From Escherichia coli (GTDB lineage: Bacteria > Pseudomonadota > Gammaproteobacteria > Enterobacterales > Enterobacteriaceae): DNA of 7,079 bases. The notes below the pieces were generated by a model. It saw nothing but the letters and a program-made list of their open reading frames with translations. It did not search any database and was not told the origin of the DNA. This document shows, piece after piece, positions 1 through 6,015 of this stretch (positions are counted from its first letter, which is position 1; each line of letters opens with the position of its first letter). Location of the stretch: the NCBI RefSeq assembly GCF_003334305.1, contig NZ_QOWS01000048.1. One strand, written 5' to 3'. The position numbers and the translations under genes are program-made.

Positions 1-183
1 TCACGCCTGAAGGGAAAGCTGCACGTTATCAGCAAGCGTTACACTCAGCGCATTGAGCGACATAATCTGAATCTGAGGCAGCACCTGGCACGGCTGGGAC
101 GGAAGTCGCTGTCGTTCTCAAAATCGGTGGAGCTGCATGACAAAGTCATCGGGCATTATCTGAACATAAAACACTATCAATAA
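1..183 (+). CDS. insB: IS1 transposase InsB (InsAB') C-terminal fragment; 5' end outside window
   Basis: Open frame from the window edge to TAA at 181-183; the encoded C-terminus ...[24 protein letters not shown] matches IS1 InsB as I recall it. Confidence 0.85.
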
Positions 184-198
184 GTTGGAGTCATCACC
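176..198. repeat. IS1 right terminal inverted repeat (IRR)
   Basis: atcaataagttggagtcatcacc overlaps the insB stop codon, as in IS1, and is the near-reverse-complement of the IS1 left end GGTGATGCTGCCAACTTACTGAT. Confidence 0.7.
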
Positions 199-1023: not shown

Positions 1024-1223
1024 GGTATCAAAAAGCGATAGATGCAGCTAATACACGACATAACCAAGAAATAAATCATTAAACGACAACACTTAATACC
1101 ATATTGTGAAGATGTTCAGACATGGCGGAATTCCCCTATTCTTTGTTGGCGCTTACAACAGACTATATTCCGCCATATCTGTCTTTATTGTGTATAAACC
1201 ATCGATACTGATGTTTGATAGTG

Positions 1224-2522
1224 CTAAATAATCATTGGCGCAATCACAAAGCCTAATGCCACTCCAGCAATAATTCCCCCCAACCCAGGCAGCATAAATG
1301 GATGATTCAGCACATATTTGCCTACACGAGTTGTGCCGGTAGTATCAAATTCCATGGCAGCCAGTGATGTTGGATACGTTGGCAGTACAAATACTCCGGT
1401 GACGGCCACATAGGACGCCAGAATTGCCCAGGTGGGCACGTCAAGCGCGACGGCAAGCGGGATAATTAACGGCGTGGTCGCACCTTGCGAGTAGAGCAGC
1501 GCGCAAGTGCCAAAAAGAACCAGCGCCAACAACATCGGATACGCCTGCAAAATATCACCAGCAATATCTTTAATCTCAGTTAAATGCGCATCAATAAAAG
1601 TGGTGCCTAAGGTTACAATGCCGAGAATTACCGCCAGCGAACTCATCCCCGCACGGAATGTGGAGGTGAGAATAATGGCATCGGTCGCCGTCTTACACAG
1701 CATCACCATCAGGCAGGCGGCAGAGAGCATACAGATAATAATGATATCGCGTGTTTCCATCGGTTTACCGATATCAAAACCCGGACGCAGTTGGGGGAAG
1801 GCAGCAAGAATAACAATAGCGACCGTCGCCAGCAGGAACAATCCGACGGAGAGCGTCGCACCTGGCTTGATGCTGCTATTATTCTCGTATTTTTGCACCA
1901 GTCCTTTTTGCAGGCGCTCAAGGTAGACCTCGTCATCCTGCAACTCACATCCCTGTCGGGAAGCAATAAAAGCGGCGACCATCGCGGCAGCAAAAGAGGT
2001 GGGAAGACATACCGACATCACTTGAATAAAACTGACACCGTTTACCTCCATAATAGTGAGCATAGCCGCCATTGCGGCGCTGATCGGCGAACCGGAAATC
2101 GCAACCTGCGAAGCGACAACCGAACCGGCAAGCGTGCGGGAAGGACGGATACCGGACTCTTTCGCCACTTCAGCAATCACCGGCAGCGTGGAAAAAACAA
2201 TAAACCCAGTACCGGCCATAATGGTCATAGACCAGGTGATAATCGGCGCGATTATGTTGATATATTTCGGGTTACGCCGCATAAAATTACCAGCGACGCG
2301 TACCAGATAATCCATTCCGCCTGCGGCCTGTAAGGCTGAGGCCGCCACAACAACGGTCATAATAATCAGGATCACGTCGACTGGCGGCGACCCCATAGGC
2401 AGACCAAATCCCAGAGTCAGAATGGCAAGCCCAAGCCCGCCACATAAACCAATACCGATTCCCCCCTGGCGAATACCAAAAAATATTGCACCAAGTACTA
2501 CGATAATTTCCAGCCAAACCAT
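1224..2522 (-). CDS. Anaerobic C4-dicarboxylate transporter, DcuA/DcuB family (432 aa)
   Basis: The 432-aa product aligns along its whole length with E. coli DcuA as I recall it (N-terminus MVWLEIIVVLGAIFFGIRQGGIGIG... versus DcuA MLVVELIIVLLAIFLGARLGGIGIG...; RRNPKYI, TLPVIAEVAKE, LPTYPT, GTTRVGKYVLNHPF motifs). Strongly hydrophobic throughout. GGAG Shine-Dalgarno 7-8 nt upstream of the ATG at 2522. Confidence 0.9.
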   Translation of the reverse strand: MVWLEIIVVLGAIFFGIRQGGIGIGLCGGLGLAILTLGFGLPMGSPPVDVILIIMTVVVAASALQAAGGMDYLVRVAGNFMRRNPKYINIIAPIITWSMTIMAGTGFIVFSTLPVIAEVAKESGIRPSRTLAGSVVASQVAISGSPISAAMAAMLTIMEVNGVSFIQVMSVCLPTSFAAAMVAAFIASRQGCELQDDEVYLERLQKGLVQKYENNSSIKPGATLSVGLFLLATVAIVILAAFPQLRPGFDIGKPMETRDIIIICMLSAACLMVMLCKTATDAIILTSTFRAGMSSLAVILGIVTLGTTFIDAHLTEIKDIAGDILQAYPMLLALVLFGTCALLYSQGATTPLIIPLAVALDVPTWAILASYVAVTGVFVLPTYPTSLAAMEFDTTGTTRVGKYVLNHPFMLPGLGGIIAGVALGFVIAPMII

Positions 2523-2587
2523 AATGTTCTCCGTTATAAATATAATTCAGTTAAAAGCGAATAACTTTCTGGCTGCGATTTAAATGA

Positions 2588-3307
2588 TTATTGGGTTAAA
2601 AGATAATGTTTACCGACACGATTTTCGTACCATTTTATTCCGGCACGAACGAGTGACGCCGTTGAGTCAATATAGCGGGAAGGCTGCTCTTTAACGGCTT
2701 GCGCCAGAATAACCGGAATTTCTGTACAACCAAGAACAAGGATTTCTGCACCGCGAGAAAATAATATTTCAGCCTGCTCATTCATCAACTTTTGTGCGTG
2801 CGCTATATTGCCAGCTTTCAAGGAATAAATACTTTCCATCACTTTTTTCTGACCGTCGGCATCGGGGCTGACACAGGTAAATCCCAGCGACTCAATTCCT
2901 TTTTGGTATAAACCCATATATAGCGTGGCATTGGTGGCTAACAAGCCAATTCGGGTTTTACCACAGGCGCGAACTTCATTGATCGTAGTTTCTACGATAC
3001 TTAATATATCAATATGACAAGCATCTTTTAATTCTTTGAACCAGTAATGCGCGGTATTACAGGGAATAACAATACATTCTGCCCCGGCATCTTCCAGCTT
3101 ATGCATATAATCACGCATAACGGGTAATGGTGAACGCCCATGATGCATTAATGCATCGGTACGGTCAGGAATATCCGGGATCGAAGAAATAATTAAAGGA
3201 ATATGTTCCTGATCACATTGTGCAGCGGTAAAAGTTACAAATTTATTAAACAGGTCGACGGTAGCTGCCGGCCCCATTCCACCGAGTACACCAATTAAAC
3301 CTTTCAC
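2588..3307 (-). CDS. Asp/Glu racemase-family enzyme, aspartate-racemase-like (239 aa; GTG start)
   Basis: Signature motifs of PLP-independent two-cysteine amino-acid racemases: GVLGGMGP near the N-terminus, IVIPCNTAHYW (first catalytic Cys) and LVLGCTEIPV (second catalytic Cys). Start codon is GTG at 3305-3307 with a GAGG Shine-Dalgarno ~10 nt upstream; an in-frame stop lies 4 codons further upstream. Only 65 bp separate it from the downstream Dcu gene on the same strand, with no terminator seen, so the two are probably co-transcribed. Confidence 0.85.
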   Translation of the reverse strand: MKGLIGVLGGMGPAATVDLFNKFVTFTAAQCDQEHIPLIISSIPDIPDRTDALMHHGRSPLPVMRDYMHKLEDAGAECIVIPCNTAHYWFKELKDACHIDILSIVETTINEVRACGKTRIGLLATNATLYMGLYQKGIESLGFTCVSPDADGQKKVMESIYSLKAGNIAHAQKLMNEQAEILFSRGAEILVLGCTEIPVILAQAVKEQPSRYIDSTASLVRAGIKWYENRVGKHYLLTQ

Positions 3308-3651
3308 AATACCTGCCTCTCAAAACGTTAATGACAATACGCGGTAAATAACTGCTGCTCTCTTTTTTAACAGTCGAAATGGGCGATGAGAAATGCAAGG
3401 TTGTACAAGGCGATGCAAGACACGCATGATGCAGCTATGGAACATTCCGCTTATTCACCATAGTGATGATGTATTCTGGTTATCTGACGGAAAAATTTCG
3501 TTTTTTTGGCGAAATGTGATATCAACGTCAATACCGGAAATGAAGGGGTTATGCACAAAACGAATGATAAAGGCCAGGTTGTGCTAATTGAGAACATTAT
3601 TTTTATTGCCGGGATGTTTTATTATGTCTTTGGATTGAAAATACAGGTGCC
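3308..3651. promoter_or_regulatory. Divergent promoter/operator region between the racemase-Dcu operon and the LysR gene
   Basis: 344-bp non-coding gap between divergent start codons. Contains three 10-bp-phased direct repeats (atgcaagg 3393-3400, gtacaagg 3403-3410, atgcaaga 3413-3420), an overlapping ATGC-N7-GCAT dyad (3413-3427) and a TCAC-N4-GTGA dyad (3455-3466) with LysR-type T-N11-A spacing. Confidence 0.5.
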
Positions 3652-4596
3652 ATGGTAATGAAGAATATCGAGACAAAATGGTTATACGATTTCCTGACAC
3701 TGGAAGCCTGTCGCCATTTTTCTCAGGCGGCAAAAGAGCGTAATCTTTCGCAACCCGCATTCAGCCGACGAATTAAGGCGCTGGAGGCAGCGATCGGCGT
3801 TGTTTTATTCGATCGCACGACCACCCCTTTACAATTAACCGAAGAGGGCAAGCTCTTTCATTCCCAGACTCGCAGCTTATTACAGCAGCTTGAATGCAAT
3901 TTGGGGGAGTTAAACGGCCAGAGTTTACTCGGCGTTCCCAACATTAAAATTGCAGCCGCGCACTCACTATCCCTGAGCGTATTACCCAAACTGGTGCATT
4001 CACTTACCGCCTATGGCGGAGAATTTGTCTATCATGTTGAAGCCATTGATGTTGTCCAGGCCGTAAATACGTTACGCGAAGGCAAGAGTGACTTTATTAT
4101 TTCGTTTCGCGATGAAGATCTTATGCAATCGCCTTTTTGCTGCCTGAAACTGTTTGAATCTGAGTTGTACCCGGTATGTGCCGCCGACGCACAGGGGCAC
4201 CCTGTATTCGATATCACTCAGCCCCAGGTTCCTTTGCTCAACTATACCGCCACATCTTATATGGGCAGGTTGGTCAATCGTCATCTGGCAGAGGTTGGAG
4301 GTATTACCGGGCGCACGATATTTATCTCTTCGATGAGCGAGTTATTAAAGAATATGGCGCTCAACGGATACGGCATTGCCTGGTTACCGATCTGGTCGAT
4401 CGTCGATGAACTACAGACCAAACGTCTGATATGCCTTGATGCTGCTAAATTGACAGTCCCCATTCAGGCTTATATTTACCGAATGAACACCCGACTGAAT
4501 AGAACCGCCGAGAACCTCTGGCGTATTTTACAGGAACATATGCCAGACGATTTAATCCAGCAGATATCAATGGAAGAGCCAGCATGCCGCAATTGA
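3652..4596 (+). CDS. LysR-family transcriptional regulator (LTTR), YjiE/HypT-like; true start more likely the ATG at 3658
   Basis: N-terminal winged-HTH region (...LEACRHFSQAAKERNLSQPAFSRRIKALEAAIGVVLFDR...) followed by a LysR-type substrate-binding domain. The N-terminus resembles what I recall of E. coli YjiE (...NIETKWLYDFLTLE...). An AGGTG Shine-Dalgarno at 3645-3649 sits 8 nt before the ATG at 3658 but only 2 nt before the ATG at 3652. Confidence 0.9.
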   Translation: MVMKNIETKWLYDFLTLEACRHFSQAAKERNLSQPAFSRRIKALEAAIGVVLFDRTTTPLQLTEEGKLFHSQTRSLLQQLECNLGELNGQSLLGVPNIKIAAAHSLSLSVLPKLVHSLTAYGGEFVYHVEAIDVVQAVNTLREGKSDFIISFRDEDLMQSPFCCLKLFESELYPVCAADAQGHPVFDITQPQVPLLNYTATSYMGRLVNRHLAEVGGITGRTIFISSMSELLKNMALNGYGIAWLPIWSIVDELQTKRLICLDAAKLTVPIQAYIYRMNTRLNRTAENLWRILQEHMPDDLIQQISMEEPACRN

Positions 4597-4713: not shown

Positions 4714-5173
4714 TTACTTACGGTCCGTAAACGGGCTGCCCGGACAGGGAATCGATAACTGCTCTCCCATTTTATCCTCTTCAAGCTGGTGCTTTATGTA
4801 ATCCTGTATCTTCGCCGTGTTCTTACCCACTGTATCGACGTAGTCCCCCCTGCACCAGAACTCCCTGTTCCTGTATTTGAATTTCAAATCACCAAACTGC
4901 TCGTAAAGCATCAGACTGCTTTTCCCTTTCAGATATCCCATAAACCCGGATACGCTCATTTTGGGCGGGATCTCCACAAGCATATGGATATGATCTGCAC
5001 AGCATTCAGCTTCCAGAATCCGTACGCTTTTCCACTCACACAGCTTTCTCAAAATACTGCCTGTTGCTCTACGCTTCTCTCTGTAGAACACCTGTCTTCG
5101 GTATTTTGGCGCAAAAAACTATGTGATATTTACAGTTCCATCGGGTGTGCGCTAAGCTCTTTTCGTTCCCCAT
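4714..5173 (-). pseudogene. tnpA: IS200 transposase tnpA (Y1/HuH), apparently frameshifted
   Basis: ATG at 5173 (minus) opens MGNEKSLAHTRWNCKYHIVF, then the frame changes at a T6 run (plus A6 at 5113-5118). The remainder ...FAPKYRRQVFYREKRRATGSILRKLCEWKSVRILEAECCADHIHMLVEIPPKMS...FWCRGDYVDTVGKNTAKIQDYIKHQLEEDKMGEQLSIPCPGSPFTDRK* is in another frame (six-frame ORF 4714-5091). The intact IS200 TnpA as I recall it reads through ...KYHIVFAPKYRRQ..., so this copy appears to carry one extra T. Confidence 0.75.
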
Positions 5174-5179
5174 TGGGAC

Positions 5180-5249
5180 CCCCTTTTGATTTCTTGTTTG
5201 ACACTTGCAGTTGCCAGACCGCAAGGTGTTTTAACAAATCAAAAGGGGT
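5180..5249 (-). promoter_or_regulatory. IS200 5'UTR stem-loop that sequesters the tnpA ribosome-binding site
   Basis: Perfect 13-bp inverted repeat: CCCCUUUUGAUUU pairs with AAAUCAAAAGGGG across a ~44-nt loop on the minus-strand transcript. The 3' arm contains the AAGGGGG Shine-Dalgarno just upstream of the AUG at 5173. Matches the described IS200 nt 69-138 structure. Confidence 0.7.
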
Positions 5250-5283
5250 TTTAATAACTGGCTCAAAGCTGAAAGCTTTCCGG

Positions 5284-5306
5284 AACCCCCAGCCTAGCTG
5301 GGAGTT
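5284..5306 (-). promoter_or_regulatory. IS200 left-end hairpin (described as blocking read-in transcription)
   Basis: Minus-strand AACTCCCAGC-TAG-GCTGGGGGTT forms a 10-bp stem (one G.U pair) with a 3-nt loop, 23 nt in total, at the position expected for the IS200 nt 12-34 hairpin. Confidence 0.55.
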
Positions 5307-5316
5307 TTCTGTGCAC

Positions 5317-5344
5317 AAAAAAACCCTGTAAAAAACTTACAGGG
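5317..5344 (-). terminator. Perfect palindrome plus T7 tract (minus-strand intrinsic terminator) abutting the IS200 left end
   Basis: Minus strand reads CCCTGTAA-GTTTT-TTACAGGG followed by TTTTTTT (plus 5324-5344 stem-loop, plus 5317-5323 A7): an 8-bp perfect stem with a U-tract. Confidence 0.55.
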
Positions 5345-5942
5345 GTATAAGGCTTAGCCTAACTTGCGTCTGTTGCATGGTGCCGGGTGCCTCCCGGTGA
5401 ATTCAGTCGGTGTCACTGAACCCGCGTAGGCTTCGCTCATAACATAATAAATGCTATGTACACCAGTCGCCCCACCGCACAGGGGGATTCACCACACGGC
5501 GCACTTTTTAACAAATATCCCTCCGGCCAGACAATAATAAACATAATGAATTGTGATCTTCTTAACAGTTTTAAAGTGTTACAGATAACATGCCAAGTAA
5601 TTGCTTGTTTTTTCATCAATAGGAAGACCACACCAACAACCCCAGCTATCAGCCAGAACCGACATTATCCGGCTGATAAAATCTACCATCACTCCAACAC
5701 CAATCACCGCCTGTGCCAGATCGCGTTTCTCAAACTTTTTAATCTCTGTTGCCACTCTGCGGGTTTTCTTTTTGAATTTTGAAAATACCAAATATCGTGA
5801 CGTTTCTTTGGGGGATGAGCTATCAAGCGGGAACGATCTGCCTACAGAGAAAGTCAGCCAGACCACTCTGCAAATTATCCCCGAAAGGCTCTGTGGCTGA
5901 TATGCGCCGGGCATGGCGCAATGGGCCAGTGGCAGTGTGTGA

Positions 5943-6015
5943 TGGTGGCCCTTACTGGATTTGAACCAGCGACCAAGCGATTATGAGTCCTCTTACCACT
6001 GAGCTAAAGGGTTGG
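5943..6015 (-). tRNA. Degenerate tRNA(CAU)-like sequence resembling tRNA-Ile2 (ileX/ileY-like); probable pseudogene or attachment-site relic
   Basis: Minus strand reads AACCCTTTAGCTCAGTGGTAAGAGGACTCATAATCGCTTGGTCGCTGGTTCAAATCCAGTAAGGGCCACCA. The T-arm, variable loop, CTCATAA anticodon loop (CAT) and 3' acceptor-CCA are recognisable and resemble E. coli tRNA-Ile2 as I recall it. However ~5 nt are missing at the D-stem/anticodon-stem junction, and the first two acceptor-stem positions (AA instead of GG) cannot pair with the 3' strand. Confidence 0.55.

Follow-up and report, generated by a model that had tools for sequence, protein, structure and literature searches.

A long inverted repeat past the converging ends of a Sel1-repeat gene and a racemase–dcu operon in Escherichia coli: a candidate 3′-end stem-loop

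Results

The inverted repeat lies in the spacer between two convergent genes

We analysed a stretch of E. coli DNA of 7,079 nucleotides (the window; RefSeq assembly GCF_003334305.1, contig NZ_QOWS01000048.1) that carries a long inverted repeat. As the reference annotation we used that made by PGAP for E. coli ATCC 43896, which is identical to the window over the 377 bp compared (1024–1400) and which places an IS1 inside an IS600 whose right end falls on window position 1023. The features on which the following analysis turns are:

199–1023, + strand: partial IS600 (IS3 family), right terminus ...CACCTCA at 1023; its 5′ part was lost to the IS1 insertion, and it lies outside the hairpin
1024–1082, + strand: 3′ remnant of a Sel1-repeat (TPR) gene, stop codon at 1080–1082; truncated by IS600, 229 aa when intact in E. 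coli A36
1117–1131, no strand: left arm of the repeat, CAGACATGGCGGAAT, with the perfect core at 1122–1131
1132–1166, no strand: central spacer of the repeat, 35 nt, within which a 1-nt insertion variant maps
1167–1181, no strand: right arm of the repeat, ATTCCGCCATATCTG, with the perfect core at 1167–1176
1182–1193, + strand: U-rich tail directly 3′ of the hairpin, TCTTTATTGTGT, T at six of the first eight positions
1224–2522, − strand: anaerobic C4-dicarboxylate transporter family gene (dcu), 432 aa, the last gene of a racemase–dcu operon; its 3′ UTR holds the hairpin

The repeat thus sits in a 141-bp spacer that separates a Sel1-like gene on the + strand from a cuyB-like racemase/Dcu operon on the − strand, the two being convergent. 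The hairpin begins 34 nt past the Sel1 stop codon on the + strand and 42 nt past the dcu stop codon (1224–1226) on the − strand. A preliminary description had located the repeat between the dcu 3′ end and the terminus of an IS3-family element; these outer borders are right, but the account is incomplete, as the Sel1 remnant lies between. The convergent intergenic setting had been missed, as had the U-rich tail that belongs to the + strand form of the hairpin.

The insertion sequences at this locus are nested. The right end of IS1 (at ∼198; window positions 1–198) interrupts IS600, whose transposase gene is reduced to its 3′ part, and the same IS1-in-IS600 arrangement was met again in several E. 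coli genomes and gut-metagenome contigs among those examined. The truncated gene encodes a secreted Sel1-repeat protein of 229 aa (L002, 6370–7059).

On the other side of the spacer, positions 1224–4596 hold an accessory cluster that comprises a Dcu-family transporter, a CuyB-like racemase and a divergent LysR-type regulator. The dcu product belongs to the DcuA/DcuB family (NF006927, 583 bits), the racemase encoded before it scores above the NCBIfam cut-off for CuyB (cysteate racemase), and the regulator from which the racemase–dcu pair diverges carries the NCBIfam name HypT. These assignments suggest that cysteate, or an acidic amino acid like it, is taken up and racemised. The cluster is present in ∼6% of complete E. 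coli genomes and also in Citrobacter, Edwardsiella, Providencia and others. Farther along the window, an IS200/IS605-family tnpA reading frame (4714–5527, − strand) is annotated as frameshifted in ATCC 43896, and strong Rfam matches to STnc490 (5183–5306) and STnc100 (5313–5527) fall inside the same interval. A tRNA-like Rfam match at 5946–6013 (− strand; 30.7 bits against a gathering threshold of 29), for which ARAGORN makes no call, may be a tRNA fragment at the boundary of the island.

The spacer and its repeat are independent of IS600

E. coli A36 has no insertion sequence at this locus. The 229-aa Sel1-repeat gene is intact there, on the + strand, and its end corresponds to window position 1082, which identifies window positions 1024–1082 as the stump of that gene; between it and dcu, A36 carries the same 141-bp spacer, identical in sequence including the repeat. 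Comparison with an IS-free orthologous locus had been named in the preliminary description as a check on the repeat, and in A36 the repeat is present and unchanged. Because spacer and repeat are identical in an IS-free strain, they are native sequence, which refutes the further proposal that the repeat is a target or a footprint left by the adjacent IS; the IS600 junction is, furthermore, 94 bp away from the repeat.

When 5426 complete E. coli genomes were searched by distant BLAST with the 141-bp spacer, 350 of them proved to carry it, each copy being at least 99% identical; the locus is accessory. O104:H4 2009EL-2071 is one carrier, besides ATCC 43896 and A36. Carriers had a median of one copy and a maximum of two, and in every copy found the spacer had dcu on one side and the Sel1 3′ end on the other. 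Most of the Sel1 gene was kept in 10 of the 350 carriers; the remaining 340 share the identical IS600 truncation. The persistence of the repeat among these genomes reflects recent common descent rather than demonstrated selection. A metagenome-wide scan for both arms with a gap of 28–42 nt gave 83 stretches. Fourteen of those listed, with a gap of 35 or 36 nt and matching spacer and flanks, were the same E. coli locus, and the other matches were unrelated (GGAAT-type satellites and other hairpins).

These data bear on a possible link of the repeat to a mobile element, whether as an IS600 footprint or target site or as a 65-bp MITE-like element with terminal inverted repeats. IS600 and IS1 are close by and the arms can be read as terminal inverted repeats, but the IS-free locus of A36 and the distant junction led us to reject the footprint. 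A MITE or repeat family was rejected as well: BLAST of the 5426 genomes returned this locus only, the metagenomes showed a single context besides unrelated chance matches, and no direct repeat flanking the inverted repeat was visible in the window sequence. A mobile-element origin of any of these kinds is hardly credible.

The repeat is longer than 10 bp and folds on both strands

The core arms ATGGCGGAAT (1122–1131) and ATTCCGCCAT (1167–1176) are perfect reverse complements 35 nt apart, just as first described, but the repeat does not end there: outward, the symmetry reaches 15-nt arms (1117–1131 and 1167–1181) with C1121/A1177 as the sole mismatch. This mismatch is a C·A opposition in + strand RNA and a G·U pair in − strand RNA.

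Chance expectation was estimated from dinucleotide shuffles of the whole window. A perfect 10-bp repeat with a spacer of 3–60 nt was seen in 28% of 500 shuffled windows, so the 10-bp repeat as first described is not significant by itself. None of 60 shuffles had a 15-nt repeat with one mismatch or none. The sole other long inverted repeat in the window has its arms near 5178–5195 and 5233–5250, within the tnpA interval.

Folded alone, the 65-nt hairpin reached −27.3 kcal/mol on the − strand (z = −6.4) and −24.6 kcal/mol on the + strand (z = −5.7), and none of 200 shuffles matched the native fold on either strand; with wider context the z-scores for the two strands were −3.65 and −4.41. The two RNAs differ in detail. 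In − strand RNA all 15 stem pairs form, including one G·U, because the C1121/A1177 mismatch is there converted into a wobble pair. The + strand stem retains the C·A mismatch and has in addition an inner hairpin of 7 bp at 1142–1162 (TTTGTTG at 1142–1148, loop at 1149–1155, CAACAGA at 1156–1162; one G·U), and the inner pairing of the central spacer on the − strand is different and weaker. Of the 15 stem pairs, 14 are Watson–Crick and seven of these are G–C, a moderate G+C content; the G–C pairs sit mostly in the upper stem, which leaves an AU-rich lower stem as a weak base.

A functionless palindrome, that is, a chance or historical repeat in an AT-rich spacer that is merely carried along by a young, near-clonal locus, would agree with the frequency of 10-bp repeats in shuffled windows, and the near-identity of all copies makes their conservation uninformative. 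The length of the arms and the folding z-scores of −5.7 to −6.4 count against it, as does the position of the hairpin, past two converging stop codons and with a U-rich tail on one side, where 3′-end hairpins are expected.

A U-rich tail follows the hairpin on the + strand alone

On the + strand, the hairpin is followed immediately by UCUUUAUU; in this tail (UCUUUAUUGUGU), U occupies six of the first eight positions (P ∼0.02, given the local frequency of T). The dcu strand has AACAUCUU after the stem, with U at three of eight positions, and there is no U-tract (AACAUCUUCACA), as the preliminary description had stated. Its proposal of a stem-loop without a U-tract in the dcu transcript is consistent with the fully paired − strand stem that begins 42 nt past the stop codon.

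The + strand form therefore resembles an intrinsic terminator in being a stable hairpin, 34 nt past a stop codon, that runs directly into a U-rich sequence. It differs from one in its size, a 65-nt hairpin whose 35-nt central spacer folds only partly, through the inner 7-bp hairpin, where an intrinsic terminator has a loop of about 3–8 nt, and in its AU-rich lower stem with a C·A mismatch; the dcu-sense strand differs further by its lack of a U-tract. A scan for consensus terminators reported no terminator-like site on either strand. This result, which is due to a central spacer longer than the normal loop of 3–8 nt, counts against a terminator. The layout as a whole is that expected of a bidirectional terminator: the repeat lies between convergent 3′ ends and forms a hairpin on both strands, with z below −5 on each. 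An Rfam search at E up to 1 gave no family at the hairpin site.

Two small open reading frames overlap the repeat on the + strand, one of 41 aa (1106–1231), with a partly hydrophobic product, and one of 29 aa (1122–1211), whose ATG falls within the left arm. The repeat could on this account belong to a small protein gene, but we saw no convincing ribosome-binding site upstream in the sequence. Furthermore, all three exact sequences looked up were absent from a collection of 15 billion predicted proteins, and both frames are shifted by the 1-nt insertion, which occurs in at least three independent assemblies. On the last two grounds we rejected these reading frames as genes, and we consider a small-protein function very improbable.

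Natural alleles affect the two strands unequally

The left arm occurs as two alleles, G1125 in 258 genomes and A1125 in 87 (about 345 in all), and among the carriers no change at C1173 was found that would compensate G1125A. On the + strand, A1125 gives an A·C opposition and lowers the stability of the hairpin by 7.2 to −17.4 kcal/mol; on the − strand it gives a G·U pair, with a loss of 2.7 to −24.6 kcal/mol. The 1-nt insertion falls into the inner hairpin (∼1156–1158) and was seen in one complete genome and two metagenome contigs. Both variants favour the functionless palindrome, since a quarter of the genomes carry an arm that is uncompensated at the DNA level and the insertion disturbs the inner hairpin. 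As clues to which strand might be functional, the wobble pairs disagree, with the − strand favoured at two positions of the outer stem and the + strand at one wobble in the inner stem.

Other species have different hairpins at the same position

A protein-guided scan of species-representative genomes yielded 35 dcu orthologue loci from ∼30 species, among them Citrobacter, Edwardsiella, Providencia, Proteus, Leminorella, Limnobaculum, Budvicia, Rodentibacter and others. No homologous 3′ flank was found among these loci. Nearly all of the orthologues have a hairpin of their own within 100 nt past the stop codon, and at 9 of 33 loci this conformed to strict criteria for an intrinsic terminator on the dcu strand. 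In several Citrobacter loci an A-run precedes a G+C-rich hairpin, and the U-tract serves the convergent gene alone, the same layout as in the window. Likewise, the three loci with Sel1 orthologues (Escherichia sp. E4736 and two Logan contigs) have unrelated hairpins at their 3′ ends. That the same position holds non-homologous hairpins in other species is a further point against a functionless palindrome.

In Escherichia sp. E4736 the sequence diverges immediately past the Sel1 stop codon. The Sel1 gene of this strain is found in a TetR/O-methyltransferase/esterase module beside ykgO and not beside dcu. E. albertii NBRC 107761 (L006, 3204–3320) has a near-identical, intact dcu, and here divergence begins right at the dcu stop codon, the spacer being replaced by a sequence that starts TG... 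and weakly resembles IS3-family elements. Retention of dcu thus does not require the hairpin, and the absence of the whole spacer from E. albertii again agrees with a repeat that has no function. We attempted to assign the spacer to one of the two gene modules by synteny and failed, given that synteny breaks after Sel1 in E4736 and after dcu in E. albertii.

Breaks on either side of the spacer, together with the long symmetrical arms, might point to a DNA-level dyad bound by a regulator, a nucleoid protein or a recombination protein, with half-sites of 10–15 bp whose centres are 45 bp apart. This spacing is unsuited to a single dimer, and the repeat lies at the 3′ ends of both genes, no promoter-like site being found within 950–1350. 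It occurs once per genome and nowhere else in E. coli, the other exact metagenome matches are unrelated, and the synteny breaks that we examined are at least partly IS-associated. A protein-binding dyad is consequently a very improbable explanation.

Discussion

The repeat described here is most likely an ordinary, so far unannotated, terminator-like stem-loop. Specifically, we lean towards a 3′-end stem-loop shared by two convergent transcription units, which would serve as a terminator, a pause site or an exonuclease block, and judge this to be probable, if not strongly so. A 3′ structure is plausible for both strands. The sequence itself, its stability on both strands, its IS-independent origin, its position past both stop codons and the strand-specific U-tract are shown here, whereas termination, pausing and RNA protection are all inferred. 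The functionless palindrome discussed above is the less probable reading, but one that retains a real chance of being correct.

If the repeat is a shared stem-loop, it would form the common 3′ end of the Sel1 transcript on the + strand and of the racemase–dcu transcript on the − strand. On the + strand, the hairpin together with UCUUUAUU would have the layout of an unusually long intrinsic terminator for the Sel1 gene; where that gene is disrupted, the same form could stop transcription that reads through from IS600/IS1 and so keep it from entering dcu in the antisense direction. On the − strand, the 15-bp stem could cause RNA polymerase to pause, block 3′-to-5′ exonucleases, or both, and the 3′ end of the dcu mRNA would thereby be fixed and stabilised after Rho-dependent or collision-type termination.

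Precedents exist for either role. Hairpin-encoding elements located between convergent genes of E. coli have been shown to work as bidirectional terminators or pause sites, including elements that look unlike an intrinsic terminator (bioRxiv 10.1101/2022.10.23.513370). The bidirectional terminators of Ju et al. (2019), as that preprint presents them (Wang et al., bioRxiv 10.1101/2022.10.23.513370), share with our repeat the convergent gene ends, a hairpin on both strands and a non-canonical form on at least one strand. They differ in that 340 of the 350 carriers of our locus have lost one of the convergent genes to IS600. At the IS600-disrupted loci, the convergent traffic may now consist only of IS read-through. 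Palindromes in 3′ UTRs, REPs among them, can attenuate transcription and also stabilise the upstream mRNA (bioRxiv 10.64898/2026.03.23.713779). Our repeat resembles REP/BIME elements in being an extragenic palindrome, located in a 3′ UTR, with the potential to terminate transcription in part and to hold off exonucleases. Unlike them, it is single-copy and not part of a repeat family, it has no Rfam or REP-like match, and its arms and central spacer are much longer.

A more specific scheme is conceivable, although we put it forward as a speculation of rather low probability. The repeat might be a non-canonical bidirectional terminator of the collision type, or one assisted by Rho, in which the dcu-strand RNA is the form under selection; it would then set the mRNA stability of the dcu operon and insulate it from antisense transcription out of IS600/IS1. 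The dcu strand would be the selected one because both outer-stem imperfections, including the allele found in a quarter of the carriers, are kept as G·U pairs on that strand only.

The importance of the repeat beyond annotation is little. For E. coli, an accessory operon for a racemase and a Dcu-type transporter, present in ∼6% of complete genomes, probably has its 3′ boundary at the repeat, and IS600 has severed the Sel1-repeat gene at this locus yet spared the intergenic hairpin. The natural G1125 and A1125 alleles would provide a ready pair for measuring what a single wobble or mismatch does on each strand. If our interpretation is borne out, the repeat would add one further example of a long, non-canonical hairpin common to convergent genes.
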